A program made the position numbers and the translations under genes. Shown here one piece after another: positions 20,030 through 37,589 of a stretch of DNA of 39,499 bases; within the stretch, counting starts at the first letter, position 1; each line of letters opens with the position of its first letter. Below the pieces are notes generated by a model. The model did not search any database, was not told the origin of the DNA, and was given only the letters and a program-made list of their open reading frames with translations. Source of the DNA: Pseudonocardiaceae bacterium (GTDB taxonomy: Bacteria; Actinomycetota; Actinomycetes; Mycobacteriales; Pseudonocardiaceae); contig JBOHFW010000055.1 of NCBI GenBank assembly GCA_050699835.1, forward strand, positions 1 through 39,499, given 5' to 3'.

Positions 20030-20104
20030 GGGCGCATAGCTCAGTGGAGGAGCGCTCGCCTTACAAGCGAGAGGTCGCAGGTTCGACCCCTGCTGCGCCC
20101 ACCA
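20030..20104 (+). tRNA. tRNA-Val (anticodon TAC), CCA encoded
   Basis: Hand-folded cloverleaf. Acceptor GGGCGCA/TGCGCCC; D stem GCTC/GAGC; anticodon stem CTCGC/GCGAG with loop CTTACAA; T arm GCAGG-TTCGACC-CCTGC; discriminator A plus CCA. Confidence 0.9.
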
Positions 20105-21293
20105 CTCTGACCAGCTATTATGTGGTCGGCGGTTGGGACTTTCTCGCGGGGCGACACCACACGTGACACAAATCGGCTGCGATGCGGCCTCGTGGCACGC
20201 GCACGCGACGGGTCGCCGGGGCACGAACGAGGTATCGACACGCTGCCCAGCGGCGCACTGCGAGTCCGCGTCTACGCCGGCATCGACCCGGTCAGCAAAC
20301 GCCGTCACTACCTCACCGACGTCATCCCCGCGGGGCCCACGGCAGCCCAGATGGCCCGCAGCGCCCGGGACCGGCCCAGGAGGTCGAAGAACGGCGAAAC
20401 CCCCGCACCGCGGCCACCCTCACTCAACTCCTCGAGCGCTACCTCGACCAATTCGACGGGGCGCCACGAACACTGGAGCTCTACCGCAGTTACGTGCGCA
20501 CGCACATCGGCCCGCTCATCGGCGAGGTGAAAGTCGCCGCGCTGGACGCGGAGATCCTCGACTCCTACGCGGAGCTGCGGCGCTGCCGGGACCACTGCAC
20601 AGCAGGCCGGCGCGGCCAGCTACAACACCGCACACCCGGCAAGCACCAGTGCGACAGGCGGTGCCGCCCGCACACCTGCCGGCCGCTGGGCGCGACCACC
20701 ATCCGCCACATGCACTTCATCCTCTCCGGTGCCTACCGGCGCGCGGTGCGGTGGCGATGGGTCAGCGTCAGCCCGCTCACCCAGGCCACGCCACCGGCCG
20801 CGCCGACCCCGAACCCGAAACCGCCCAGCGCCGCGGACGCGGCGCGGATCGTGAACCACGCCTGGCGGGACCCGGACTGGGGCACCCTGGTCTGGGTCGC
20901 CATGACGACAGGGGCGCGACGGGGCGAGTTGTGCGCACTGCGCTGGTCACACGTCGAGCTGGACCCCGAAAAAGCGGTGCTCTGGCTACGCCGGGCGATC
21001 AGCCACACCACCGAGGGCTGGATCGAGAGCGACCTCAAGACTCACCAGCAGCGCCGGGTCGCGCTGGACCCCGAGACCCTCGCCGTGCTCACCGAACACC
21101 GCGAACGCTGCCAGGCCCGCGCCGCCACGCTCGGACTCGACCTCCACCAGGACGCCTTCGTCTTCTCACCCGAACCGGACGGCGGCAGGTTCCTGGCCCC
21201 TAGCTCGCTCACACAGCGATACGACCGGCTCGCCGAACGCCTCGAGCTGGACACCACCTTCCACAAACTCCGGCACTACTCCGCCACCGAGCT

Positions 21294-21630
21294 CAAAGTG
21301 AGCGGAGTTGCGTTGGGCGCATCATTCGGCAAGATCCGTGAACCGCTCCTGCCTGCGACGTCGCCGTTCGGACTGAATCAGGGTCGGCTGGTGGAGGCCT
21401 AGTCACACAGGTCCTGACCAGGCAATAGATCCTGTTGTTGCATTGAACGTCACGATGTTGCACCCGATTCGGTGGCATCCTGCGCCGGATAGTTGCATCA
21501 GATGCAATCGACAAGATCGGCTGCCGCGTCGCTTCCGCTCCTCAGCGCGCTGCGCGCGCCTGCGGTGCGGGTCGACTTGCCATCGAGCCAGGGGAGGCAT
21601 TCGCGTGGTTGGAACATTGCTCTCTACCAG
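21294..21630 (+). other. About 337-bp non-coding insertion splitting the integrase catalytic domain (nature unknown)
   Basis: Deleting 21294-21630 joins ..HYSATE-L(ct|t)-FTAGVDIRTVAGRLGH.. in frame with canonical spacing. The length is 3n+1, matching the frame offset between the two halves. The insert has stops in all frames; boundaries are good to a few nt only. Confidence 0.4.
21493..21507. promoter_or_regulatory. Perfect palindrome TTGCATC-A-GATGCAA inside the integrase insertion
   Basis: Read directly. Two further GTTGCA words lie at about 21436-21441 and 21456-21461. Function unknown. Confidence 0.2.
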
Positions 21631-22337: not shown

Positions 22338-23483
22338 TCACGCCGTGAGGGTGAAGGCGTCACGCACGACGGTGCTTGGGTCGTCTAGCCACACCGTCTG
22401 GGTGTCGGTGGTCATGGTCATCCCGAAGCGGGTGAGGCCGGGTTTGCCGTGTTCGTACCACCAGTCGTAGGCGGCTACGGCTTCGTCCCACAGCCGGCGT
22501 GGGCCGAGTTGGTGGACGACGAGTGGGTTCGGTGAGGTGAGGTGAGCATCCAGCCGGGCCCATGACTTGGTGGTGATGTCGTCGAGCTCCAGGACGTGGT
22601 GGTCTTCGCCGAACTTGTTCAGTTCGACGGTGAGGGCGCAGCGGGGAACCTGAAGTCCGATAGAAAACCCGGCCTGATCGCTGTTGATCATGCGGAAGAA
22701 ATCCCATCCGTGCACATCGGTGGTCGTTACCTGCGCCTGCTCGATGTCGGTCCGCTCAGGTTCGTAGAACCGGCGTTGGTGGGCGCGTAGCCGCATGAAC
22801 GCCAGATCCCCCTCGAAGCGGCCGGTGGCGCTGTGATCGGTGATCACGCGCAGGGTCAGCATGACGCCATTGCAGTAGTCGGTTCCCCATGGTGTGACGA
22901 TGAGACCATCGGGCCGGGTTTGCGCCAGCCAGGCCTTGGGGACACTCTCGCGGACTGAGGCGGTCGCCACCACCCGGTCGTAAGGCGCCCCGTCCGAGTA
23001 CCCTTCCACCCCATCTCCAGTGACCACCAGCGGTGAATACCCAGCGGCAGCCAGCGCCGCTCGCGCGTCGTCGGCGATCACCGGATCGACCTCAATGCTC
23101 ACCACCCGGCCTCGCATCCCCACTCGCCGGCACAACAGCGCGGCGTTCCACCCAGTGCCTGTGCCGATCTCGAGCACCGAATGTCCGGGGCGTAAGTCCA
23201 GCGCATCGAGCATGCCGGCCACGATCGAGGGCTTGCTACACGAGCTGGACGGTGACCAGCCGATATCACCGGCCGCGGTGCGACCCTCATCGACCTGAGT
23301 GATCACAGGCTCGTTCGCCGAGACCAACTCCCGCCAGCGTCGCGGATGATCGTGTTTGGACAGCGCGGTGAACCCAGGCCGTGAATGAGCAGCGACGATA
23401 TCAAGCCAGATGGTCTCGGGAATAAACGGTTCCCGGGGCACCTGCGCGATCAACTCACGCCAATCGGTACGGGTTGCCACCAC
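22338..23483 (-). CDS. Protein-L-isoaspartate O-methyltransferase (PIMT) homologue with a ~170-aa C-terminal extension (RiPP-associated type)
   Basis: N-terminus ..DWRELIAQVPREPFIPETIW.., SAM box VLEIGTGTGWNAALL, VVSIEVDPVIADDARAAL, VTGDGVEGY...YDRVVATASV, then a non-PIMT C-terminal domain. GTG start at 23483, 6 nt after the stop of the small peptide ORF. Confidence 0.8.
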   Translation of the reverse strand: MVATRTDWRELIAQVPREPFIPETIWLDIVAAHSRPGFTALSKHDHPRRWRELVSANEPVITQVDEGRTAAGDIGWSPSSSCSKPSIVAGMLDALDLRPGHSVLEIGTGTGWNAALLCRRVGMRGRVVSIEVDPVIADDARAALAAAGYSPLVVTGDGVEGYSDGAPYDRVVATASVRESVPKAWLAQTRPDGLIVTPWGTDYCNGVMLTLRVITDHSATGRFEGDLAFMRLRAHQRRFYEPERTDIEQAQVTTTDVHGWDFFRMINSDQAGFSIGLQVPRCALTVELNKFGEDHHVLELDDITTKSWARLDAHLTSPNPLVVHQLGPRRLWDEAVAAYDWWYEHGKPGLTRFGMTMTTDTQTVWLDDPSTVVRDAFTLTA

Positions 23484-23489
23484 GATTCC

Positions 23490-23633
23490 CTAGTCGTCCC
23501 TCTTCTCCGGCTCATCCCTCTCATGCCTGCCGCGACCGTAATCCTTGGGCTTCTCCGTCTTATCCGGCTGGTAGACACCCTGACCATCGCGGTCACCATC
23601 ATGCTTGTTCGGCTTGCTGTCCTGACCCAACAC
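23490..23633 (-). CDS. Unannotated 47-aa highly charged peptide (candidate methyltransferase substrate/RiPP precursor)
   Basis: Not in the ORF track (under 60 aa). GTG 23633 to TAG 23490-23492: MLGQDSKPNKHDGDRDGQGVYQPDKTEKPKDYGRGRHERDEPEKRDD. GAGGGGA lies 4 nt upstream, and an in-frame TGA three codons upstream fixes the start. 35 of 47 third positions are G/C and none is A. Tightly coupled to the downstream methyltransferase. Confidence 0.55.
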   Translation of the reverse strand: MLGQDSKPNKHDGDRDGQGVYQPDKTEKPKDYGRGRHERDEPEKRDD

Positions 23634-23649
23634 CGCATCCCCTCATGAT

Positions 23650-23663
23650 GGCCACTAGTGGCC
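23650..23663. promoter_or_regulatory. Perfect 14-bp palindrome GGCCACTAGTGGCC upstream of the peptide ORF (candidate operator)
   Basis: Read directly. Lies 16 nt upstream of the peptide GTG on the minus strand. Confidence 0.3.
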
Positions 23664-23982
23664 CCACCCGTCGCTATGGCCACAGTACGAGCCCTCCGCG
23701 CCACCACGGCATCCAGCGGGGCGGTCTCAAACAGGAGCCACGGAGGCCGAGTCGGCGGGTGAGGTCGTCGATGGCGGCGGCGAGTACCGTGGGCCGTGGC
23801 GGACGGTATAGGCGTCGAGGGTCGCCAAGGGAGAGGTTGACGACTCGGGCCAACGTCCGCGGCGTGGCGTAAGGAGAGTCGTGAACGGATCAACCCGACT
23901 GCTCATGTCGTCCACGACCGCTGGATACTCTGCGAAAAACCGTCTTCGAGGTCCTCGGCGGGGGGCTGGCAGCACCGTTGCA

Positions 23983-24138
23983 TCAGCGACTCCGCGCTCG
24001 ACCAAATGGCAACCGACGCACGATCACTACCCGCCTGGGCTCATCCACGACGGCGTAGTAGATGAACCCGTAGTTCGTTGGTCCGTAGCAACTATGCCAG
24101 GACACTAACGCTAACGATCTTGTTTTGGTCTTGATCAC
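23983..24138 (-). pseudogene. RelE/ParE-like toxin C-terminal fragment (weak)
   Basis: Small minus-strand ORF, not in the track: ..NYGFIYYAVVDEPRRVVIVRRLPFGRARSR* resembles the C-terminal beta-strands of RelE/ParE toxins (YR.iY.v.d....v.v..v.hR). At 51 aa from GTG 24138 it is too short for a full toxin. No partner antitoxin recognised. Confidence 0.3.
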
Positions 24139-24282
24139 TATAGAGACTTATTCGGCAACGCAAGTTTGGAACAAGGTGTGTCCCAACCCCCTCTACGGTG
24201 CTCTCAGGGGTGAGCTGAGCGGCTCGTCAACGATGACGGTGCCCCCGGAGGGTACCGGCCCGCTCCGGACGCGCGCCACAGG

Positions 24283-24643
24283 TCACTCTGGTTGGCTTAC
24301 GGTCACAGGGACCCTGCGATTGTCAGGGCCGTAAGCAGTGGTCGACGAATCAGCCATGAGCAGATGGTCTCCTTGAGTGGAACCGGCCGGCCACCAGGAG
24401 TCGATGTCGGGGGCCAACGGCTTCAACCGGTGACCGGCCGGGATCTTGGGGGGACGGAAGCTCGAAGTAGGTACTGGCCCGCAGCGCGGTGCACGCCTCG
24501 CAGCAGCAGCCGCGTTCCCCGGACGCCGACTCACACCAGTCGCAGCGGCACCCCTTGTGCCACCGCGAGAGCAGCCCATGGCCGATCAGGTCACTGTCGG
24601 GCTGCTTGGCCTTACCCGGCGGGGTGATGGTCCTGGTCGTCAT
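24283..24643 (-). pseudogene. Small Cys-rich protein (HG..W.KGCRCDWC motif), frameshifted at a G/C homopolymer
   Basis: ATG 24643: MTTRTITPPGKAKQPDSDLIGHGLLSRWHKGCRCDWCESASGERGCCCEACTALRASTYF (GC3 about 90%). After the C6 run (24448-24453 on +), coding-like GC3 moves to the frame of ORF 24283-24579 (..KIPAGHRLKPLAPDIDSWWPAGSTQGD..). The G.RC..C motif is common in actinobacterial mobile-element small proteins (from memory). Confidence 0.5.
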
Positions 24644-24669
24644 GCCGGCGGAGGAACCTGGCACGGCGG

Positions 24670-24885
24670 TCACTTGGCAGCCGCCAGCATCGCCTTCGCC
24701 ACCTCGACGGCCTCGGCACGCGTGAGGATCGTCGCGGTGCCCATCGTGGCGTCCAGCGTCACCACCACCCGGCGCTGAACGACGCCGCCCACCAGGTCCG
24801 TCTCCTGCCATAGGATGATGGTGCGGCTCCGGCCCTCTGGATCTTGAGCGGTGAGGGCAAATCGGTGCGACTGGTCGGCGGTCAT
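24670..24885 (-). CDS. Hypothetical 71-aa protein
   Basis: MTADQSHRFALTAQDPEGRSRTIILWQETDLVGGVVQRRVVVTLDATMGTATILTRAEAVEVAKAMLAAAK. Its ATG overlaps the upstream stop as ATGA (24882-24885). Confidence 0.6.
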   Translation of the reverse strand: MTADQSHRFALTAQDPEGRSRTIILWQETDLVGGVVQRRVVVTLDATMGTATILTRAEAVEVAKAMLAAAK

Positions 24886-25205
24886 CGCGTCCTCGTCTCT
24901 CTCAGGTCCCCGGTTTCCACGCAGAGGCTGAACAGCACCAGGTGCACCCGGCACCACGCAGCGCACGGCCACCGGCGACGACACCACCACCGTTTCGGGC
25001 ACGCCGGGCAACGCCCGTACCGCGGTGGTTGATGCGGCAACAGCACCGCGCGCAGCGCATCGACCAGTGTCGGGTCGTTGCCGGCGCGTTCCAGCTCACC
25101 GAGGCGACCCCATACTGCGCCGACAGGGTTGCCGTGCTTAGGCAGACCAGCCAGGAACCGTTGCGTGGTTTCTGGCTGGTCGTCGTCGCGTTGCCGGATC
25201 GTCAT
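24882..25205 (-). CDS. Hypothetical 107-aa protein with a GRCPACP...WPC motif
   Basis: MTIRQRDDDQPETTQRFLAGLPKHGNPVGAVWGRLGELERAGNDPTLVDALRAVLLPHQPPRYGRCPACPKRWWCRRRWPCAAW... Its ATG 25205 overlaps a TGA (25202-25204) that ends the upstream coding frame. Confidence 0.6.
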   Translation of the reverse strand: MTIRQRDDDQPETTQRFLAGLPKHGNPVGAVWGRLGELERAGNDPTLVDALRAVLLPHQPPRYGRCPACPKRWWCRRRWPCAAWCRVHLVLFSLCVETGDLRETRTR

Positions 25206-25847
25206 CGCCCGGGGTTGGGGTTGGCTAGCGTCTGGATCGCCCGCCTTCGCTTCAACAGCTCTGCGACGAGGGTGTCGTTTGCTGCGTTGCGACCGCGGTC
25301 CGCGTTGTCCAGGAACAGCTTGACTAGCGCCTCCCCCGGGGTCAGAGGAGACACTGCGGGGAGAGCGCGTCGCGGGTACGTCGGCGGGGGCGTTGGTCAC
25401 GGTTGACGAGAATGAACGCCGGTTTTCCTCGCTCCAGACCTGAGCGTTGGCCTCCTCCAGGCGCATGAGCAGCTGTTCTCGGAGCAGTGGATGAGGCGAG
25501 AGGTGCGCAAGCGAGGGCACCACCATGTGATGTACCTGCGTCCGCTTCAGTTCATCTGTCAGTTGGTAGAACATGCCGTAGTACTCCGGCTGGTACTCAG
25601 AGAAGATCGCGGTGAGGCATAAGCTCTCCGCCTCGGCAAGCTTGTGAAGACCACATTCCAGCTGCTGAACGTCGTCATCGTCCAGGTCTTCAGTGACCCG
25701 TAGGTAGCCATAAGCCAGGGGTTTCCTGTTCCTCCGTGCAGCTTTACGTTGGCAGGCCGGATCGGCGATGGGTTCGGAGTGACCAGTGACCAGCAGGCGT
25801 GCCGGCCTGGCCAGCGGGGAAGACGGAGAGGCAGCGCGCATGGTCAT
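25202..25847 (-). pseudogene. Resolvase-N-terminal-like protein lacking the catalytic Ser, frameshifted near 25332-25341
   Basis: ATG 25847: ..RKPLAYGYLRVTEDLDDDDVQQLECGLHKLAEAESLCLTAIFSE..VVPSLAHLS..LLMRLEEANAQVW mimics a serine-recombinase N-domain but has RVT instead of RVS. Past the CCCCGGGGG run the high-GC3 frame (about 80% vs 48%) switches to ..EALVKLFLDNADRGRNAANDTLVAELLKRRRAIQTLANPNPGR*. Alternatively the tail is a separate 50-aa gene from GTG 25354. Confidence 0.5.
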
Positions 25848-26041
25848 CGGGCCCGCCTCAGAATGGCTTCGGCCAGGGTGGTCATGTCCGCTGCTGTCAA
25901 CCGCACGCCGGGGTTGTCCAGTCCATGAATCGTCCAGGTGCCATCGTGCTCGTGGATCATGACTATGGTGCACTGGCTGCCATCGTCGGTGCGATGGCCT
26001 TTTGCTGTGAGACGGGCGCGTTTCGTTGGGTACGTGGTCGG
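25844..26041 (-). pseudogene. Small hypothetical gene with unclear start (in-frame stops upstream)
   Basis: Best-GC3 frame reads PTTYPTKRARLTAKGHRTDDGSQCTIVMIHEHDGTWTIHGLDNPGVRLTAADMTTLAEAILRRAR*, ending in ATGA overlap with the next gene. The only canonical start inside is ATG 25960 (38 aa). The same frame upstream reads MTTEAGARP*SR*. Confidence 0.35.
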
Positions 26042-26218
26042 TTACCTCGATCACGGTCTGGCCCCTGCTTCGGTCGTCATGCTCCAGATGGACGGCACCA
26101 GAGCCGGGGAATACCGGACTGGTGGAAGCGGGGCAGGCGTCCTGTGAAGGACGGCACACCAGCTCAGGGTTCAGCCCGGCCCTGGGGCCAGGGCAAGGAC
26201 GCTAAGGCAGAGGCGAGC

Positions 26219-29175: not shown

Positions 29176-29802
29176 TCAGGCGATCGCGTCTTCGGGCCTG
29201 CGCAATGCACGTGTGAGCGGCGCCGTGGTGTCAGCGAGTCGGGCGGCCAATGGGCGCTGCCCCGAGGAATGCGGACGCCCATCCCGGGCCCGATCCTCCA
29301 ACGCATCCCGCAACCGGCGGGACGTGTCATCGGAGGACCGGCAGGCGTGCGCGACCTCGATCCGCAGAAAGAACCGATCATCCGCATCGGAGAGATCCCG
29401 GCGATTCGCCTGCCCATGCAACGTGATGTCATGCTCCTCCGACAACGTTAGGAGCTCCTCTAAATCCCGGGGCTGGCGCATCAACCGATCCGGATGATAC
29501 ACAATTACATGCCGCAACTGCCCCGCCCGGATCGCGTCCAGTAACGCATTCCACCCCGGACGACACCGATTCCGCTGCCACGCCGACTGATTATTATCCA
29601 CAAACACAGCACCCGGGGCAATCACCAATCCCAGCCGCTCGGCCACCTCACGGCACAACCGCTCCTGGCGATCCACCCCGGTCTGATCCTCATCCCGGGC
29701 TCTGGAGATCCGGCAATAGATCGCCGCCGGCTGCCCAGCCCACCCCGACGACCCACCCTCACCCCGAGTCCTGCCCCGGGTGTGACGCTGCGCGCTGCCC
29801 AT
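29176..29802 (-). pseudogene. Large serine recombinase, N-terminal resolvase domain only (truncated)
   Basis: From ATG 29802: ..AAIYCRISRARDEDQTGVDRQERLCREVAERLGL..WQRNRCRPGWNALLDAIRAG..VIVYHPDRLMRQPRDLEELL.. carries the catalytic Ser in the RIS context. It stops after 208 aa, with no recombinase or zinc-ribbon domains. Confidence 0.7.
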
Positions 29803-29835
29803 AAGGCCGTAGTGTATGAACGAGGCATGAGCCGG

Positions 29836-30048
29836 GTCGACATCGACACCCCGCTCGGCCAGGAGCTCTTCCACGTCACGGTAGGAGAGCCCGAAACGCA
29901 GATACCAGCGCACCGCCAAGGTGATCACCTCCGGCGGAAACCGGAAACCAGCGAACGCCGAGGGCGCGACCGACGGGGCGACACAGCGAGCGGCACTCAT
30001 CAACCAAGCATGACCACCGCTGCTCCAATCCACGGACGCAACAGTGCC
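29836..30048 (-). mobile_element. IS6/IS26-family IS fragment (terminal IR plus first ~50 codons of the transposase)
   Basis: Outer end GGCACTGTTGCG at 30048 (IS26-type IR GGCACTGTTGCAAA from memory). Encodes MSAARCVAPSVAPSAFAGFRFPPEVITLAVRWYLRFGLSYRDVEELLAERGVDVD, matching the IS6 transposase N-terminus (..ILWAVRWY..ISYRDLEEMLAERGV.VDH). Homology ends about 29836. Confidence 0.8.
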
Positions 30049-30218
30049 CATCAGTGCCATCAAACATCCTTTCGCGGATGCGTGTATCATTCTGTCCAGC
30101 TGCCGCTCTTTTTAGTGACCTTGATTACGAGTCCGGAACAGGAATCCAGTGCGCAGCTTTGGCCACACAGCAACGACCTCCCACGCGCCTCGCCGGCATC
30201 TGCCGACGCGACGGAGCG

Positions 30219-32390
30219 ATGAGCCATCTTCCTCGGCGGGGCTGTGAGGTGAAGGAATGGCGCGTGGACAGAGGGACGGCGTCGCGACCGCCTCTCACGG
30301 GAGACCGCGACGCCGTCGCCCGTAGGCAGGTTTCGCGCCCCGCGGGCCTGCCCGGCACGGTCTTGTGGCTTCAGTCCGCGGCCGGGAATGCGCGGGTCGT
30401 CCGGGCGTTGACACTTCTTCGCCAGCATGCCCCGGGCCCTGCCCCTCCGCCTGCCCCCGCCCCCAAAGTGACGTCTCTGCTCAAGCGGGTGGCCGACTTC
30501 ACAACTTCGAAGGCGACGCTCAGCGGCGTCGAGGTGAACGTCACGGGTCGTCTCGTAGTGAGCGGCCAGGCGACAGTCATCGACGCCACACTACCGGCGA
30601 ACGCCGCAGCTCGTGCCGTCGCGGGGAGGGCGAGCGAGCTCCTCGTGGCGGCGCTCGCCGCTGCAACACCTACCGGATCAGCCACTCGTATTGAAGTCTC
30701 CCTCGGGGGGAATCCGCTAGTGCTGGAGCTGACCGCCGCACCCGTGGGTCCGGCCTTCCAGGTGACTGGGCACTTCACCGCGAAAGCCGGAACGCTGTCG
30801 GTGCCTGGGGTGGATGTCATCTCACCCCAAATTACGCTCGACGCGACCATCTGGATCGCGCCGCCGCTCACGACCGGGGCGTCCCCCTCCCAGCCCGCCG
30901 CGGCAGCACCAGGCGACGCCACAGTGAAGACCTACTCCTTCGCTGGAGACCTATCGCGTTTCAGCGACACAGCCATGGGTGGGCGGAGTCGCAGCGTTAG
31001 TCTGAAAAGCAGTTTTGACGAGCTTGACCAGAGGCTGAAGCCAGAAGTCAAAGCGGGCGCACGGGGCTTTCTCACCCGCCGCGAGCAGGTGCTCGCCTTC
31101 TTCCAGGAGATGCGGTCTTACTTCGGCACCGACGACAAGACAATCGACCACTTCGCAAACTTCCGGAAGGCCAACATTAAAGGGGCCACCACGATCCTCC
31201 ATGAGGCGGCCGCTCTACGACTGGAGGCGGTGCAAGCAGAGGTCGGCACAGCCAATATGCCCTCCAGCGGCGGCGTCGGCTGGCCCCGATCGGAGTGCCG
31301 CCTTAGCGGGAAGGCTGGGCTCGACAACCTCCACAACCTCGGGATGGCCATCGACTACAACGCGGCCCAGGCTCCCAACATCAAGGACCTGCGGATCAAG
31401 GATCTAATCAAGATCACCACCGGACGCGGACCAACGGCCAACTATCCATCAACGAGGGGCATAGACAGGCGCAAGGTCGACGAGACGAGTACGACCGGCA
31501 GCGACGCAGAAAAGCAGGCGCTCGCGAACGACGCCGCCGTGACCCGGTGGCTCGACGGGGTGGAGGCCGAGGCCACAGCGCTCGGCCAGGCATCCGAGGA
31601 TTTCCGGGCCAGCCTCCAGACCAAGGCGGACCCGAGTGACCCGAAAAGCGCTGTGGTCGACAACGGACCCAAGCTCGTGGCGCTTCGCACGCGCTGGCAC
31701 GCCGCGGCCGCAAAGCCCCCGGCCCAACGCACAGCTGAGCGGGCCGCCGTGATGGCAGAGCTACCCGCCGTCGTAACGCCTTGGCGAGATAAGATCGTCG
31801 CGTCTCGTACCACGTCGCAGGCGGACATCACCAACAGTGGCGTCGATGCGGCGACGTTGCCCACAGATTCAAAGGCGGTCGCGGATGCCGCCCTTACGGC
31901 CGAGCGCTTGCGCCAGAGGGCGCAGCCGCTGCTCGCCGCCGCAGCGCCACTGCCGAAGACACGGCGCCGCCAGATCGATGTGCTCATCAGGCAGGCGCGC
32001 ACGGCCATCGGAGAGCAAGGCGGATCCCCCTCTGCTGACGACGCAGCCACGATCGCGGAGCTGAAGCGCCTCGATAAGCTTCTGGAGAAACGCGGCATTG
32101 CGCTGCTCGCGCACAGTCGTATCATGCGAATGAACTCGCTTGAGGCTGCGCTGTCAGACGCCAACTTCATGTTCGGATCCGACCCGTCCGCAGCAGTTAT
32201 TAACCCATCGGCAGCGCAGCTCGTCGGCGAGGGCTTCTTCACGCTGAAGGGTGCGCCTAGGGCTGGAGTGGGAGCCTTCAGTCCGGCCTTTGTGAGGTCG
32301 ATGCTCAAGCATGGCTTCGGCCACGGCGCGGAGTGGGGCTCACCTGACCTCATGCATTTCGAGCTTCGTTGGAAGGGCCCCGGCCAGTAA
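30219..32390 (+). CDS. Toxin-like protein: LQxxAGNxxV N-terminal motif plus a split LAS/M15-type zinc peptidase signature
   Basis: N-terminus ..LPGTVLWLQSAAGNARVVRALTLL.. LAS metal boxes DNLHNLGMAIDYN (H-x6-D) and, about 330 aa later, GHGAEWGSPDLMHFELRW at the extreme C-terminus. Start is ATG 30219 or GTG 30264 (AAGGA 7 nt upstream). The track start 30054 lies in low-GC leader DNA directly abutting the IS end. Confidence 0.7.
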   Translation: MSHLPRRGCEVKEWRVDRGTASRPPLTGDRDAVARRQVSRPAGLPGTVLWLQSAAGNARVVRALTLLRQHAPGPAPPPAPAPKVTSLLKRVADFTTSKATLSGVEVNVTGRLVVSGQATVIDATLPANAAARAVAGRASELLVAALAAATPTGSATRIEVSLGGNPLVLELTAAPVGPAFQVTGHFTAKAGTLSVPGVDVISPQITLDATIWIAPPLTTGASPSQPAAAAPGDATVKTYSFAGDLSRFSDTAMGGRSRSVSLKSSFDELDQRLKPEVKAGARGFLTRREQVLAFFQEMRSYFGTDDKTIDHFANFRKANIKGATTILHEAAALRLEAVQAEVGTANMPSSGGVGWPRSECRLSGKAGLDNLHNLGMAIDYNAAQAPNIKDLRIKDLIKITTGRGPTANYPSTRGIDRRKVDETSTTGSDAEKQALANDAAVTRWLDGVEAEATALGQASEDFRASLQTKADPSDPKSAVVDNGPKLVALRTRWHAAAAKPPAQRTAERAAVMAELPAVVTPWRDKIVASRTTSQADITNSGVDAATLPTDSKAVADAALTAERLRQRAQPLLAAAAPLPKTRRRQIDVLIRQARTAIGEQGGSPSADDAATIAELKRLDKLLEKRGIALLAHSRIMRMNSLEAALSDANFMFGSDPSAAVINPSAAQLVGEGFFTLKGAPRAGVGAFSPAFVRSMLKHGFGHGAEWGSPDLMHFELRWKGPGQ

Positions 32391-32520
32391 GGCCAGTGCT
32401 TCGGTAGTTAACTCAGCCGCCAAGTTCTTGATCGAGCCATACCGACGATCCACAGCGCAAGGCGCGACCTTGACACTGGTTTATGAGTGGCGCGCGCATG
32501 TCTGGTTTTCGCGGGCGGAC

Positions 32521-32653
32521 GGCACTGTTGCGTCCGTGGATTGGAGCAGCGGTGGTCATGCTCGGTTGATGAGTGCCGCTCGCTGTGTCGCCCCGTCGGT
32601 CGCGCCCTCGGCGTTCGCTGGTTTCCGGTTACCGCCGGAGGTGATCACCTTGG
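32521..32653 (+). mobile_element. Second IS6/IS26-family end fragment, inverted relative to 29916-30048
   Basis: 133 bp matching the reverse complement of 29916-30048 with 2 mismatches, by hand alignment. Starts with GGCACTGTTGCG at 32521 and diverges after ..GTGATCACCTTGG. Confidence 0.8.
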
Positions 32654-32745
32654 TGTGGGCGACGCGTGAAAACTGACCCCCTCCTGGTGGCGAGGCCTCG
32701 GGCGAGACCCTGGTTGATCGTTGATCAGGGGGAGGGGATGCGGGG

Positions 32746-32853
32746 GTGTTGGCTGTGGAGGATTGGGCTGAGATCCGCCGGTTGTATCGGTCGGAGGGGA
32801 TGCCGATCAAGGTGATTGCGCGGGTGATGGGGTGTTCGAAGAACACAGTCCGT
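32746..32853 (+). mobile_element. IS21-family transposase (IstA) N-terminal fragment
   Basis: VLAVEDWAEIRRLYRSEGMPIKVIARVMGCSKNTVR matches the conserved IstA HTH N-terminus. Only about 36 codons remain, abutting the IS110 fragment. Confidence 0.7.
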
Positions 32854-33135
32854 CTTACGACCCGGCACATGCTTCAAATGCGCGGCATTGACCAACAGCA
32901 CCTCGAAATCATCCTCCAGCAGGTAATACGGCGCCTTCCAATACACGCCCGTGGACTCCATCGCCACATGCGTCACACCCACTGACGCCAGCCAGTCCCG
33001 CAGCTCCAACAGATCCGGCGTAGTCGCTCCGAACGACCGAACCTCCTCGGCCAACTTCCCCCGATCACTGACCACCCGGACACACACCACCAGCAACGCC
33101 TGACCCACATCAATCCCCGCACATCGATCAATCAA
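32848..33135 (-). mobile_element. IS110-family transposase N-terminal (DEDD) fragment
   Basis: From TTG 33135: MIDRCAGIDVGQALLVVCV..FGATTPDLLELRDWLASVGVTHVAMESTGVYWKAPYYLLEDDFEVLLVNAAHLKHVPGRKTD has the characteristic IS110 DEDD boxes (GIDVG, AMESTG, VNA..K...GRKTD). It breaks at about 32848, where the IS21 fragment begins. Confidence 0.75.
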
Positions 33136-33786
33136 CCTGCGCGCCTGACACCTCCACGGCTCACCACGACCACGACGTGCACTCGCAAGGGGGCTGCCAG
33201 AACAGACGACTCTGCTCCACGTGCTCACAGGCAACAGTCCAGGGCGCCGAACAACCCCCGCGACCAGACTTCAGAACGGGCTCACCCGGCACCATGGGGC
33301 GGCCGGCGTCGTCGCAACAGTCCCAGCTCGAGCCGTTTGCATGGCTCTTCCGCCGTCAAGCGCCCTGCACCCAGCGCATGGTCTCCTATCCGAAGCGAGG
33401 CCTCCACAGAGCCGTCGAGTTCGGGCATGGCGCAGGCGACCTCGATCTCCGGCGCGAACCCGATCCTTGCGGTCTCCGCACGCTCCGCGTGCAGCTTCTC
33501 TCCCTGCGTCATGCGCGCTTCACCTCGATATCCACCCACGGCGACGGTTTCGGAGGCTGTGCAGCCATGCGCAGATACTACCCTCGGGCGCTGGTCCAGG
33601 GACTCCTATGAACGTACGGTCGCGAGGTTCGTCGAAGACCTGGAGATTCGGATGCCGATGCCCTACGAAGTGGAATGTGTAAGTTATCTCTATCCGGTGA
33701 GATCGCTCAGAGTGGTCCCTTCGACACTCCTGATGCTGCTCACCAATCTAAAGTGCGCGATTCAGGCCGAACGATCGTCGAATCGC

Positions 33787-34190: not shown

Positions 34191-37100
34191 GTGGGGCTAG
34201 AGCTGCGGGCGTTGGGCCCGGTCGAGGCAGTGGTCGATGGCCGGTTGGTCGATTTGGGGCCATTTAAGCAGCGTGCCCTGTTCGCCCTGTTGTTGAGTCG
34301 GGTGGATCGGTCGGTGGCGGTCGACACCCTGATTGAGGAGCTGTGGTCGGGGGAACCACCCGCCGCGGCGATGGCATCGCTGCAGGCGTATGTGTCCAAT
34401 CTGCGGCGGGTGTTGGAGCCGCACCGCCCACCCCGTGCTCCTGCTGTGGTGTTGCGTACCCGCGCGCCGGGTTATGTGCTGGATAGTCACGGTGCAGAGG
34501 TTGATGTCCGTCGGTTTAGTAGCTACGCCACGGCCGGGCAGAAGGCACTGGCCCGGGCCGATCCTGAGCAGGCGTTACAGCAGTTCGACAGGGCGCTGCG
34601 GCTGTGGCGTGGACAGGCCTACGCCGACATGCGCGACGCCGCGTGGGCGAGGTTTGAGATTGCTCGGCTCGAGGAGCTGCGGCTCTCGGTGAACGAACAG
34701 CGGTTCACGGCACTCCTGGAGCTTGGGGCACACCAGGTGACGGTGGCCGAGCTAGAGGGACACGCCCGCGCCCATCCGCTCCGGGAACAGGGCTGTGAGT
34801 TACTTGCCTTGGCGTTGTACCGCAGCGGGCGGCAGGCCGAAGCGCTGGGAGTGCTGCGGACTAACCGGATGAAGTTGGCCGAGGAGCTGGGCATCGATCC
34901 CGGGCCAGCGCTGCAGCGATTGGAACGGGACATCCTCATGCAAGCCCGCACACTGGACTGGCACCCACCGCAGCCGGCGCTCGCTGCGCCCATCACGGCG
35001 CGGGCGCCAGGGCCGGCACCGGCGAGCATCGCCCCGCAGCCACTAGTCAATGCCGAGGTCTTTGTTGGCCGCGAGGCAGCGTTGCAGCAGCTTGTCAACG
35101 TGCTGGGCGTCGTGGCTGACGGTCGCGGGCGGGTGGTGCTGGTCGCGGGCGAGCCGGGGATTGGCAAGACGACCCTACTGCGGCGCTTTGCGGAGCTGGC
35201 CCCTGTTCCGGTGGTGTGGGGTGGGTGTCCGGAGCACGTTGCAGCACCACCTTTGTGGCCTTGGGAGCAGGCGCTGCGCGCGGTGAACGCCCACTGGCCC
35301 GATCGGTCGGTGCCGGACTCGGTGAGCGCGCTGCTGAGTGATCAACCCCTGGAGATATCCCAGCTTGACGTGGCCAGCGCCGCGTTGCGGCGTTTCGAGG
35401 CGATCGGTGAGTATCTGACCTCCGGGCCAGACCCGCTGGCGGTGGTCGTCGATGACTTGCATTGGGCGGATATCGCCTCGCTGCTGCTGCTCACGCATCT
35501 TGCCGAGTTGGTAGCCACCAGCCCGCTGTTGCTGGTGGCCTCCTATCGGCCGCACGAGTCGGCCACGCTGGCCGCCACGCTAAGCACGCTGGCCCGCGTC
35601 GGGGCCGTCCGGATCGAGCTGAGTGGCCTGGGCGCGGCAGAGGTGCAAGTCTTGGCAGGCGCGGTGGCTGGGCGGGTCGTCAGCAAGCACACCGCGCAAG
35701 CGCTGTGGGCCCGCACCGAGGGCAACCCGTTTTTCCTGCGGGAACTGGTCGGATTGTTGGTCAGTGAGCAACGCCTGGACCAGCCAGACACCGCACCGGT
35801 GCCGGTGCCTGTGCGCGAGGTGGTGCTGTGCCGCGTCGCTCGGCTGCCCCACGACACCGCCGCGGTGTTGTCGATGGCCGCCATCGCCGGCCGGGACTTC
35901 GACGTCCAGGTCGTGGCCGAGGCCGCCGCAGTCGAGATCGACGCCGCGTTGGAGGCGATCGACGCCGCGGTGGCCGTCGGGCTGGTGGTCGAGGACGAGC
36001 AGCGACTGGGCTGGTTCCGCTTTACCCACGTGCTGGTCGCTGAGGCCCTGTATCAGGCGACCGGGCGGCTGCACCGCGCCCGCCAGCATCGCCGGCTGGG
36101 GCAGGCGACCGCCCAGGCGTGGGCCGGGCACGACGAGCGCGCCGGCGAGATCGCCCGGCATTGGCTGCTCGCCGCCGAACTCGACTCCGCCACCGCCGCA
36201 CAGGCTGCCGCCTACGCCAAGGTCGCGGCTGGGGTGGCCGATGCCCGGCTGTCCCCCGAGGACGCCGCCAAACTGTGGCAGCAGGCTCTGGCCGCCGCCG
36301 AACTGGCTAGCGACGTCGACCGCTACCCGCTGCTTACCGGCCTGGCCACCTCGCTGTACCGGGCCGGCAACTACCGTGACGGGCTGCCGTTGTTCGTCCA
36401 GGCCATGGAACAGATTCTCGTCGAAACCGACCCCGAGGGCGTCAACAGCTCCCGCCTGGTTACCGCAGCGCTTGGGGCCATCGGCGAGCCCGCCTGGTAT
36501 CCGGGCGATTACGGCATCATCGACGAGCCGCTGGTTGGGGTACTTGAGCGCGCCCTGCCGCAGCTTATTGACCCCAAGCAACGTGCGTTAGTGCTGTCTT
36601 GCCTGGCCGTCGCCCGCTACTACGACGACGATCCCTCGGGTCGCGCCGCGCTATCGGACCAGGCCCTGGCTTTAGCCCGCGCCACCGCGGACCACCTCGC
36701 GCTGGCCCACGTGTTGCGCTTGCGGACGTTGGCGCTGTATGGCCCCGACTACCCTGCGCAGTGCCTGGAAGCGACCACCGAGCTACTGGAACTGCCCGGC
36801 GTGCCCCAAGCACTGGCGGTATCCGCCCGGCTGCTCCGCGCCCACGTCCTGATGATGCTGGGCCGCATTGCGGACGCTGCCGCTGACTTCGATCTGCTTA
36901 TTCCCCTCGTCGAACAACTGCGCTCACCACAACTTCGCAGCCAGCTCGATTGGTCCCGGGCCGGGCTGCTGCTGCTGGCTGGGCGCTGGTCAGAGGCTGA
37001 GGAGCTGAGCCAAGCCACATTTGACGTGTACGCCCGGACGGAGTGGTTCGTTGTGCGAGCCGCCCGGATGGCCCAATGCTGGGAGGCGGCGTACTTAACC

Positions 37101-37589
37101 GGGCGCGGCACGGACCTAGTCGACAAGCTGCGTGCCGCCGCTAAGGCTACCGGTATGCCCGCGCTGTACAGCATTCTGGCCATGGCACTGGTGCAGGCCG
37201 GCCGAGCAGAGGAGGCCCGCCGTGAACTGTGCGACTATCAGCCCGGCCCTAGGGACTACACGTGGCTCTACACTCAGTGTTGGGCTCTGCTAGCAGCGTC
37301 GCGGTTGGGTGACACTGAGCTGGTGGCCCGACTACGCGGCGAGCTGCTGCCCTACCGTGGGCTGGCCTGCGTGGTCGGGTGGGCGGGCGCCAGCGGGTCG
37401 GTGGCCTATTTCACTGCTGAAGCAGCGTTGGCTCTCGGTGACCCCGATACCGCCCTAGCTGACCTCACCATCGCTATCGAGACCACCGAACGGATGGGCG
37501 CGCTGCCCTGGCTGGCTCAGGTCCACGAGACCATCACCCGGGCCCAGCGATTGCGCCAAACCCACATCAGTGAGCGTCAAGCGCGGTAA
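34191..37589 (+). CDS. SARP/AfsR-family regulator: OmpR-type wHTH + BTAD + P-loop STAND NTPase + TPR
   Basis: LRALGPVEAVVDGRLVDLGPFKQRALFALLL.., BTAD ..ALRLWRGQAYAD..LEELRL..ALYRSGRQAEAL..R..L.EELGIDPGP.L. Walker A LVAGEPGIGKTTLL, Walker B VVVDDLHWAD, and a long helical-repeat C-terminus. GTG start. Confidence 0.85.
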   Translation: MGLELRALGPVEAVVDGRLVDLGPFKQRALFALLLSRVDRSVAVDTLIEELWSGEPPAAAMASLQAYVSNLRRVLEPHRPPRAPAVVLRTRAPGYVLDSHGAEVDVRRFSSYATAGQKALARADPEQALQQFDRALRLWRGQAYADMRDAAWARFEIARLEELRLSVNEQRFTALLELGAHQVTVAELEGHARAHPLREQGCELLALALYRSGRQAEALGVLRTNRMKLAEELGIDPGPALQRLERDILMQARTLDWHPPQPALAAPITARAPGPAPASIAPQPLVNAEVFVGREAALQQLVNVLGVVADGRGRVVLVAGEPGIGKTTLLRRFAELAPVPVVWGGCPEHVAAPPLWPWEQALRAVNAHWPDRSVPDSVSALLSDQPLEISQLDVASAALRRFEAIGEYLTSGPDPLAVVVDDLHWADIASLLLLTHLAELVATSPLLLVASYRPHESATLAATLSTLARVGAVRIELSGLGAAEVQVLAGAVAGRVVSKHTAQALWARTEGNPFFLRELVGLLVSEQRLDQPDTAPVPVPVREVVLCRVARLPHDTAAVLSMAAIAGRDFDVQVVAEAAAVEIDAALEAIDAAVAVGLVVEDEQRLGWFRFTHVLVAEALYQATGRLHRARQHRRLGQATAQAWAGHDERAGEIARHWLLAAELDSATAAQAAAYAKVAAGVADARLSPEDAAKLWQQALAAAELASDVDRYPLLTGLATSLYRAGNYRDGLPLFVQAMEQILVETDPEGVNSSRLVTAALGAIGEPAWYPGDYGIIDEPLVGVLERALPQLIDPKQRALVLSCLAVARYYDDDPSGRAALSDQALALARATADHLALAHVLRLRTLALYGPDYPAQCLEATTELLELPGVPQALAVSARLLRAHVLMMLGRIADAAADFDLLIPLVEQLRSPQLRSQLDWSRAGLLLLAGRWSEAEELSQATFDVYARTEWFVVRAARMAQCWEAAYLTGRGTDLVDKLRAAAKATGMPALYSILAMALVQAGRAEEARRELCDYQPGPRDYTWLYTQCWALLAASRLGDTELVARLRGELLPYRGLACVVGWAGASGSVAYFTAEAALALGDPDTALADLTIAIETTERMGALPWLAQVHETITRAQRLRQTHISERQAR

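Follow-up and report, generated by a model that had tools for sequence, protein, structure and literature searches.

What kind of protein is encoded by a lone gene enclosed between two inward-facing ends of an insertion sequence (IS), and how did it come to lie there? The gene occupies positions 30264 to 32390 on the forward strand of a 39,499-nucleotide stretch of contig JBOHFW010000055.1 (assembly GCA_050699835.1), which we analyzed over its full length and refer to as the window; the host is an uncultured Pseudonocardiaceae bacterium. An earlier sequence-only reading had taken the product for a toxin-like effector with an N-terminal LQ..AGN..V leader and a split LAS/M15 zinc peptidase, captured as cargo between two copies of an IS6-family element. 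Our comparisons suggest, with a probability that we put at about 0.62, that the gene belongs to a widespread family, as yet without a name, whose members serve as cargo or effectors of extracellular contractile injection systems (eCIS), and that it encodes a probable cell-wall-cutting toxin.

Results

A peptidase-like domain interrupted by a helical bundle

The sole gene-like open reading frame (ORF) inside the bracketing repeat runs from 30054 to 32390. Residues are numbered here on the 723-amino-acid reading from the ATG at 30219, and confidence is given as the predicted local distance difference test score (pLDDT) of an AlphaFold2 model built from a 33-sequence alignment (mean pLDDT 80.4; predicted template modeling score 0.69).

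30264–32390, plus strand: effector-like gene; 708 amino acids from the conserved GTG, 723 from the ATG at 30219; start conserved in the related locus L016
30369–30398, plus strand: LQSAAGNARV leader (residues 51–60), inside the predicted disordered N-terminal region
30465–31004, plus strand: conserved beta-rich domain (residues 83–262), pLDDT about 85–94
31005–31454, plus strand: N-terminal half of the LAS/M15_4-like domain (residues 263–412), mixed alpha/beta; Pfam M15_4 profile positions 8–26
31287–31289, plus strand: R357 of GWPR, in the N-terminal catalytic half
31332–31334 and 31353–31355, plus strand: H372 and D379 of NLHNLGMAID, the first box
31467–32174, plus strand: helical bundle (residues 417–652), Ala/Arg/Leu-rich, seven helices, pLDDT >90, inserted inside the catalytic domain
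32181–32372, plus strand: C-terminal half of the LAS/M15_4-like domain (residues 655–718), helix-strand-strand; Pfam Peptidase_M15_4 positions 42–70, E = 2.5e-5
32346–32348 and 32355–32357, plus strand: D710 and H713 of DLMHFELRW, the second box

The leader and both boxes lie where the sequence-only reading had placed them: LQSAAGNARV spans residues 51–60, NLHNLGMAIDYN spans residues 370–381 (with H372 and D379) and DLMHFELRW spans residues 710–718 (with D710 and H713). The distance between the boxes, estimated there as about 330 residues, is 331 from D379 to D710. Residues 1–74 are predicted to be disordered (pLDDT <50), and no transmembrane or signal-like hydrophobic stretch is present (the top Kyte–Doolittle 19-residue window scores 1.19), so that the protein is predicted to have the disordered N-terminal region without a Sec or Tat signal that is expected of cargo. 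The beta-rich domain that follows, at residues 83–262, has no Pfam match and no Foldseek match.

Against the Pfam family Peptidase_M15_4 the intact protein scored 25.2 bits, just above the gathering cut-off of 25, through its C-terminus only (profile positions 42–70). When residues 340–404 and 684–722 were spliced together, however, they produced one collinear match to positions 9–70 of the 70 in the profile (34.8 bits, E = 2.4e-8). Taken alone, the N-terminal half scored 12.8 bits (profile positions 8–26) and the C-terminal half 20.2 bits (positions 41–70); each half thus matches the corresponding half of the profile, and the two boxes stand in the correct order. A search with M15 models, which the sequence-only reading had proposed as a check, therefore came out in favor of its assignment, with a score above the gathering cut-off and halves that are collinear after splicing. 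A profile made from the spliced alignment had a single hit among PDB sequences, the Ply500 L-Ala-D-Glu peptidase (2vo9), in which HNYGVAVD and DYPHFEL were aligned in order, at an E value of only 1.1; alignment of the C-terminal half to PlyA500 with hhalign gave E = 2.3e-4.

At the level of single residues, the first LAS box, (S/N)xHxxGxAxD, corresponds to N370-L-H372-N-L-G375-M-A377-I-D379, and the distal DxxH box corresponds to D710-L-M-H713-F-E, which aligns to DYPHFEL of Ply500. Upstream of both lies R357, in the stretch SGGVGWPR; by its position, and with no significant alignment, it may correspond to the substrate-binding arginine of an SxxR (SGYR-like) motif. A compact, contiguous catalytic domain is not found, and the seven-helix bundle stands between the boxes. 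Taken together, these sequence comparisons support the interpretation of the two boxes as a split LAS/M15 (Peptidase_M15_4-like) peptidase domain. Searches with the full length of the protein were uninformative: the top full-length Foldseek matches (Cys-loop receptors, ClyA-type toxins and levivirus maturation proteins) were rejected as noise, as were the coiled-coil matches (ATP synthase b, tropomyosin; E ≥ 5) that were all the full-length family profile found among PDB sequences.

A word-indexed search returned 35 homologues, and an exhaustive profile search extended these to 267 clusters at E ≤ 1e-3, 199 at ≤ 1e-10 and 93 at ≤ 1e-30, with clusters counted at 50% identity; the family thus comprises at least 267 clusters. 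Six further records of the family, one locus each, came from scanning 185,579 species genomes; they lie in Thermoleophilia, Leptolyngbya, Ardenticatenales, Thermoanaerobaculia and Chloroflexia. The family is unnamed and widespread, and has neither a Pfam model of its own nor a structure. Many remote members align only at profile positions of about 290–709, behind varied N-termini, and 23 of the 67 remote members match Peptidase_M15_4. Across alignments of 33, 67 and 99 sequences, H372, G375 and D379 are invariant and R357, D710, M712 and H713 are at least 90% conserved, a pattern of conserved residues that points to catalysis. Both HxxGxAxD and DxxH[FWYL]E occur in 111 of 177 family proteins, and in all of these the boxes lie 230–498 amino acids apart (median 354) and never close together; the helical insert thus defines the family. 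The sequence-only reading was correct that the contiguous domain of M15 enzymes is missing, but the large insert that it regarded as unusual is a family-wide trait rather than a peculiarity of the window protein. One remote member also carries a Tlde1 domain (E = 5.6e-7), a peptidoglycan toxin domain of the L,D-transpeptidase type known from type VI secretion systems (T6SS), and thus has a second cell-wall-directed module on the same scaffold; apart from eCIS_core (see below), no other domain of toxin type was seen in the family.

A family that recurs beside contractile injection systems

We examined ten homologue loci for eCIS neighbors, scoring a locus as negative when no eCIS gene lay within 10 kb. 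In five of the ten, a family member lies directly beside eCIS genes:

L008, Leptolyngbya: sheath, gp19 tube, Pvc16_N, WHD-AAA and another eCIS_core toxin
L009, Thermoanaerobaculia: GPD, base_V, PAAR, gp25 and Tail_P2_I
L013, metagenome contig: four eCIS_core proteins, Pvc16_N and AAA
L005 and L006, Chloroflexia: a WHD-AAA ATPase upstream and a small protein with leader and eCIS_core downstream

Genes adjacent to the family member encode eCIS_core (DUF4157) in L005, L006, L008 and L013. Fusion of the same domain to the N-terminus of the family protein itself is seen in six of the 35 close members and in 15 of the 67 remote ones. It is the sole recurrent fused domain, and no marker of the T6SS or the type VII secretion system (T7SS), or other recurrent secretion marker, was found in these members. 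The suggestion that this is an effector-like protein tied to eCIS is thereby strengthened, with homologues that either stand beside sheath, tube, baseplate and AAA genes or carry an N-terminal DUF4157.

This arrangement is in keeping with published descriptions. In eCIS cargo, a disordered N-terminal loading region and, optionally, a DUF4157 domain precede a variable C-terminal effector (bioRxiv 10.64898/2026.05.27.728243). DUF4157 marks eCIS toxins, many of which lack immunity genes (PMC8213781), and Peptidase_M15_4 is enriched in eCIS operons with an odds ratio of 11.3 (supplement of PMC8213781). The supplements of Danov 2024 contain no mention of PF13539.

A leader shared by otherwise unrelated proteins

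The motif [LMIV]Q..xGN..x occurs in 72 of 177 family proteins, compared with 2.0 expected from shuffled sequences, and nearly all occurrences fall within residues 1–85. For an unbiased test of the leader, we searched with only the DUF4157 domain of a Chloroflexia protein and considered the 120 best hits, all of which are small DUF4157 proteins. Ten of these 120 carry the leader (0.25 expected), and in eight of the ten, those with measurable spacing, it lies 96–102 amino acids before HExxH. The sequence-only reading had linked LQR.AGN.AV to DUF4157-type proteins, and the link is supported by this enrichment and by the fixed distance.

The leader is also common to neighboring proteins whose remainder is unrelated. 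Beside two close family members lie ORFs of 605 amino acids (L011, 11733–13550) and 546 amino acids (L014, 7726–9366), which share 49% identity over the 37-amino-acid leader region but no similarity beyond it; neither C-terminal region is related to the other or has a Pfam hit. Judged by their sequences, these leader-bearing neighbors look like additional cargo, encoded in small "cargo islands" at a distance from eCIS operons. Cyanobacterial members of the family lack the motif, in line with a published report of system-specific loading regions (bioRxiv 10.64898/2026.05.27.728243).

A lone gene between decayed IS6 ends

The native start of the window gene is the conserved GTG at 30264 (VDR...), which has AAGGA 7 nt upstream and gives a protein of 708 amino acids; the ATG at 30219 sits in DNA that is not homologous to the relatives. 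The earlier length estimate of 709–723 amino acids is accurate at its upper end, for the reading from the ATG, whereas the stop codon was included in the figure of 709. Automatic annotation placed the start of P0001 (633 amino acids) at the GTG at 30489 and thereby lost the leader. Family gene calls often begin too far downstream or split the gene, dropping an LQxxxGN leader that lies in frame upstream; it is found upstream of mis-called starts at about 9662–10001 in L009, at 9174–10004 in L010 and at about 9380–10001 in L011. In both L010 and L016 a frameshift splits the gene into two ORFs, which may reflect an assembly error or a pseudogene; the upstream ORF of L010 matches the window gene by tblastn and is thus the frameshifted N-terminus of the same gene. 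The window ORF is intact, with every conserved residue present, and its ratio of nonsynonymous to synonymous substitution rates (dN/dS) against L015 is 0.19.

The closest relatives at the DNA level are the metagenome contigs L016 (84–89% nucleotide identity) and L015 (74–79%). By blastn and MAFFT, homology to both spans 30232 to the stop codon at 32390. In both relatives the gene is preceded by a conserved partner gene (positions 1–897 in L015 and 2–1099 in L016) that encodes at least 365 amino acids, has no Pfam family and ends in a TGA overlapping the effector ribosome-binding site. From this overlap, we consider the two genes to be translationally coupled in L015 and L016; the upstream product could be a partner, a chaperone or a second cargo. 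Because homology begins only at 30232 and the last ~20 bp of the upstream gene are kept, a second breakpoint, 183 bp inward of the IS6 end, must lie at 30231/30232. The DNA between the gene and its bracket is accordingly divided as follows:

30049–30231, no strand assigned: spacer from the IS6 end to the start of homology, 183 bp; holds the non-conserved ATG at 30219
30232–30263, plus strand: remnant of the lost upstream partner gene (~20 bp, aligning to the 3' end, ...LGGAVR-stop, of the upstream gene of L016 and L015) and the AAGGA ribosome-binding site
32391–32520, no strand assigned: spacer from the stop codon to the right IS6 end, 130 bp, not homologous to the relatives' downstream DNA

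The bracket itself is formed by these elements:

29836–30048, minus strand: left IS6-family fragment; its terminal inverted repeat GGCACTGTTG ends at 30048, and ~46 first transposase amino acids are read leftwards
29916–30048, no strand assigned: left arm of the inverted repeat (repeat I1), 98% complementary
32521–32653, plus strand: right IS6-family fragment and right repeat arm, with the terminal repeat and the first ~13 transposase codons; cut at 32653

The 133-bp inverted repeat described in the sequence-only reading is present, with arms at 29916–30048 and 32521–32653 that are 98% complementary over 133 nt each and have 2472 nt between them; a chance origin is excluded for a repeat of this length and identity in 39.5 kb. 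The inner end of both arms is GGCACTGTTGCGTCCG. Both transposase stubs point outwards, and hence two IS6 left ends face the central segment. The assignment of the arms to truncated IS6-family ends also stands, as both the terminal repeat and the transposase N-terminus are of the IS6 type. The left copy, which extends to ~29836, matches the NCBIfam model transpos_IS6 at positions 1–40 of 202 (E = 9e-13) and is 67% identical to amino acids 7–48 of a complete 236-amino-acid IS6 transposase from a Neotabrizicola plasmid (E = 4e-18); the core CTGTTGC is common to the window ends and the end of that plasmid element. Against IS6 transposase genes on alphaproteobacterial plasmids, the left fragment has 73–77% nucleotide identity, and only such distant copies occur in the plasmid collection.

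What remains at the locus is 133 and ~213 bp of the two copies, with neither a complete DDE transposase with both ends nor direct copies with an 8-bp target duplication. No target-site duplication is recognizable at the IS6 ends, the outer flanks of which are now resolvase and IS21/IS110 fragments. The window contains no intact IS6 copy, and an exact search of the metagenome collection for the 24-nt end found no match. Both IS6 ends were truncated later, by the serine-recombinase fragment on the left and the IS21-like end on the right. To describe the gene as captured between IS6 copies was thus an overstatement, as the copies are inverted, both are truncated (to ~13 and ~46 amino acids) and a further breakpoint removed the native upstream gene. 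The IS6 bracket is a fossil, an ordinary product of insertion-sequence decay and not an active transposon.

The surrounding island

The window opens with core actinobacterial genes (accD, fabF, fabH, fabD, a PucR regulator and aceE), and its AceE is 94% identical to proteins of Pseudonocardiaceae metagenome-assembled genomes. The part that holds the effector-like gene is a genomic island with the following landmarks:

20030–21402, plus strand: tRNA-Val (20030–20104) followed by a tyrosine integrase (20182–21402), the start (left edge) of the island
29176–29835, minus strand: serine-recombinase (Resolvase) fragment abutting the truncated left IS6; Pfam Resolvase E = 1.4e-21, residues 122–272 of the ORF 29176–30090
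32654–33234, no strand assigned: insertion-sequence debris, an IS21-like left end truncating the right IS6 and then an IS110 fragment
ORF from 32746, plus strand: IS21-like left end with the first ~30 amino acids of istA; NCBIfam transpos_IS21 model positions 1–30, E = 0.002
32725–33234, minus strand: IS110 DEDD transposase fragment; transpos_IS110 E = 6.8e-19

A search inside the window for an attR repeat of the tRNA-Val end found none of at least 13 nt, and the island therefore runs past the contig end at 39499. The GC content at third codon positions (GC3) is 0.76 for the effector-like gene compared with 0.85 for the core genes, and that of the island genes is lower. The ORF 29176–30090 fuses the recombinase catalytic domain in frame to the IS6 stub; because it ends ~30 amino acids past that domain, without the usual C-terminal domains, the serine recombinase is probably a fragment. 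A tblastn search of the window found no remnants of the proteins that neighbor the relatives.

Downstream of the effector-like gene, at a distance of 1.8 kb, lies a large SARP/BTAD and AAA_16 (AfsR-like) regulator (34191–37589, plus strand). BTAD regulators have been noted beside eCIS operons (Geller 2021, PMC8213781). In L007, too, the homologue has a BTAD/AAA_16 protein nearby, but its resemblance to the window regulator amounts to only 28% identity over the BTAD part and was not treated as synteny. Farther upstream, a PCMT-type methyltransferase (22338–23483, minus strand) scores 291.7 bits against TIGR04188 ("ATP-grasp peptide maturase system methyltransferase"), below the 380-bit cut-off, and the ORFs beside it at 23450–26159 have no family match; the region 22338–26159 may represent what is left of a cluster for ribosomal-peptide maturation.

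Discussion

Our results favor a model in which the window gene encodes eCIS cargo. In this model, the leader region would direct the protein into the tube of a contractile particle, with help from the AAA+ ATPase of the eCIS; after injection, the two halves of the peptidase domain would come together in one zinc site, and this site would cleave a peptidoglycan peptide bond or precursors containing D-Ala-D-Ala or L-Ala-D-Glu. Cell-wall hydrolysis by the family is what we infer from the peptidase-like motifs. The producer would need no immunity protein because, with no export signal, the toxin would stay in the cytoplasm; the window contains no immunity-like neighbor, as the sequence-only reading had noted.

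Several observations weigh against this model. At the level of the locus, no eCIS gene is present among the ~30 ORFs of the 39.5-kb window that we scanned (every ORF of at least 180 amino acids that looks like a gene), so the window gene is not part of an eCIS operon and is, as had been noticed before, set apart from delivery machinery. Nor is an eCIS gene found within 10 kb in five of the ten homologue loci (L007, L010, L011, L012 and L014). Four of these, L007, L010, L011 and L014, make up the close subclade, being all of its members with long flanks, and L012 is more distant. Since the whole close subclade is without a nearby eCIS, the orphan placement is a trait of the subclade and not a result of the IS6 ends; for these proteins, the proposed link to eCIS depends on the leader they have in common and on relatives that are more distant. 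The sequence-only reading had treated the product as a DUF4157-type leader protein; the leader is present, but a Pfam search of the window protein gave no hit to the ~79-amino-acid HExxH domain DUF4157/eCIS_core (PF13699) at E < 0.1, and HExxHxxQ occurs nowhere in the window. Expression is a further concern. The native upstream gene is gone, and presumably its promoter as well; a sigma-70 promoter scan of 29800–32800 found no sites, which says little for Actinomycetota, and the window copy may be silent.

Other difficulties concern the enzyme and the literature. The N-terminal box scores just 12.8 bits when taken alone, and the loop at 703–714 that holds D710 and H713 is modeled with pLDDT <50. 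Foldseek searches of PDB and BFVD with the full model gave no match at E ≤ 1e-3. With a sub-model of the N-terminal half (pLDDT 91.3), five of nine Foldseek hits were to VanXYc, but these were weak and not significant (E = 2.9–4.8). Finally, among the papers searched, none links Peptidase_M15_4 to a secreted effector and none contains the leader motif strings.

The peptidase could instead act on the producer's own wall, as an endolysin-like enzyme for eCIS release or in developmental cell death linked to a contractile injection system (CIS), and the protein's predicted chemistry points to the cell wall. Several Peptidase_M15_4 genes in eCIS operons are indeed small endolysins beside holins, for example in Photorhabdus (supplement of PMC8213781), and Streptomyces CIS act inside the producer (PMC11126660). 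We consider this explanation unlikely, however, because no holin or signal sequence accompanies the gene, because 700–950 amino acids with a disordered leader or DUF4157 is the architecture of cargo and not of an endolysin of 130–300 amino acids, and because the leader is common to neighbors with unrelated C-termini, as expected of a delivery tag. Another view would make the LAS motifs vestigial or merely ligand-binding, with the protein acting through its helical bundle, either as a membrane-active or pore-forming toxin or as a tape-measure-like protein of the tube lumen. The helical insert is as conserved as the motifs, the best (non-significant) full-length Foldseek hits include the ClyA-type alpha-pore-forming proteins SmhA, AhlB and MakA (probability ≤0.2), and Streptomyces is known to have CIS effectors of a tape-measure-like, coiled-coil type (PMC11126660, PMC13277306). 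Yet across 67–99 divergent sequences invariance is confined to H, G and D in the first box, with R357 and the D..MH of the second box at least 90% conserved, and the Foldseek hits do not rise above noise (E ≥ 0.16). The insert is predicted to be a compact seven-helix bundle rather than a long coiled coil, and, with a top hydrophobicity window of 1.19, the protein has no hydrophobic helical hairpin. This view therefore seems to us quite improbable.

Two further alternatives concern how the protein travels and how the gene does. If the leader were a tag for another export route (T7SS, Sec or Tat), proximity to eCIS genes would be coincidental, and the half of the examined loci without an eCIS gene within 10 kb could be cited in its favor. 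We give this hardly any credence: neither the 67 remote members nor the window protein contain a WXG, LXG, PAAR or Rhs domain or a signal peptide, eCIS_core is the only recurrent fused domain, the leader keeps its fixed distance of 96–102 amino acids upstream of HExxH in unrelated small DUF4157 proteins, and in five independent loci, representing four phyla, eCIS genes are immediate neighbors. It might also be proposed that the 2.47-kb segment is a functioning compound transposon of the IS6/IS26 type, now spreading a toxin gene, given that 98%-identical IS6 left ends enclose exactly one gene, that the locus lies within an island rich in mobile elements and that the effector GC3 is below that of the core genes. 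IS26-type pseudo-compound transposons use direct repeats, however, whereas the window copies are inverted, with their left ends inward. Both copies have been cut to 133 bp and ~213 bp, keeping ~13 and ~46 transposase codons; the window has no intact IS6 and no recognizable target-site duplication, and the 24-nt end has no match in the metagenome collection. The breakpoint at 30231/30232 is an extra, unrelated rearrangement, and no IS6 lies beside the gene in its closest relatives, L015 and L016. Current mobility of this kind is thus very unlikely.

What is new in these findings? Toxins associated with eCIS are already known; new are a family whose catalytic domain is always split, a conserved beta domain without a fold match and a sequence-defined leader common to DUF4157 proteins. 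A broader proposal, which we put forward tentatively and with the odds somewhat against it, is that LQRxxGNxxV is a sequence-defined loading tag for one CIS lineage across Actinomycetota, Chloroflexota and Acidobacteriota, placed on unrelated cargo with or without DUF4157; that the split-LAS family is a new class of injected enzyme with a functionally required insert; and that orphan copies are trans-encoded cargo, loadable by any resident eCIS that recognizes the tag. In that case, the helical insert could allow unfolded threading through the tube followed by refolding, or could keep the peptidase inactive in the producer. Cargo recognition by eCIS is poorly understood, and recent papers state that there is no conserved loading sequence; the leader is thus a concrete candidate tag, which could aid both searches for cargo genes outside eCIS operons and the loading of engineered payloads. 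The family would likewise offer a candidate cell-wall enzyme with antibacterial action, in which a large conserved insert divides the catalytic domain.

Relation to known systems

The bracket around the gene resembles the pseudo-compound transposons of the IS26/IS6 family in having two near-identical IS6-family ends starting GGCACTGTTG around a single passenger gene. It differs from them in that the copies are inverted and not direct, are truncated to 133–213 bp, encode no transposase and are without a recognizable target duplication.

With the LAS/M15 zinc peptidases (Peptidase_M15_4, Ply500 2vo9 and VanXYc 4mur/4oak), the window protein shares the succession of (S/N)xHxxGxAxD and DxxH(F)E, with a conserved arginine upstream that may be equivalent, the order of secondary structure around the boxes (strand, helix ... 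helix, strand, strand) and a score that passes the Pfam gathering threshold. In known M15 enzymes the boxes are roughly 45–60 amino acids apart, whereas the catalytic domain of the window family is interrupted by a helical bundle of 230–498 amino acids (331 here). The window protein also differs in its upstream 180-amino-acid beta domain without a fold match and in having no cell-wall-binding domain or export signal, and similarity at the level of the fold is not significant.

The tape-measure-related CIS effectors of Streptomyces (Tme and Sle1; PMC11126660, PMC13277306) are similarly actinobacterial, CIS-linked and DUF4157-associated, and have large helical regions. No relationship in sequence or fold was detected, however, and the helices of the window protein are predicted to form a compact bundle inside an enzyme domain, with neither transmembrane hairpins nor a nuclease domain.

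A further comparison is with the eCIS-associated toxins and cargo such as AlgoCIS Cgo1/Cgo2 (PMC8213781; Danov 2024, PMC11297309; PROCIS preprint 10.64898/2026.05.27.728243). Unlike these, the window copy has no DUF4157 and no eCIS gene within 39.5 kb, its C-terminal module belongs to an undescribed family, and the leader of its family has a conserved motif, LQRxxGNxxV, of a kind not reported in those papers, in which loading regions have no conserved sequence. In common with them, it has a disordered N-terminus, an optional DUF4157/eCIS_core in its family and a variable, predicted enzymatic C-terminus, and is without a signal peptide and, as is often the case, an immunity gene. A BTAD/SARP regulator lies near the window gene (34191–37589), and homologues of its family are found on the 3' side of eCIS operons or next to an AAA+ ATPase gene.

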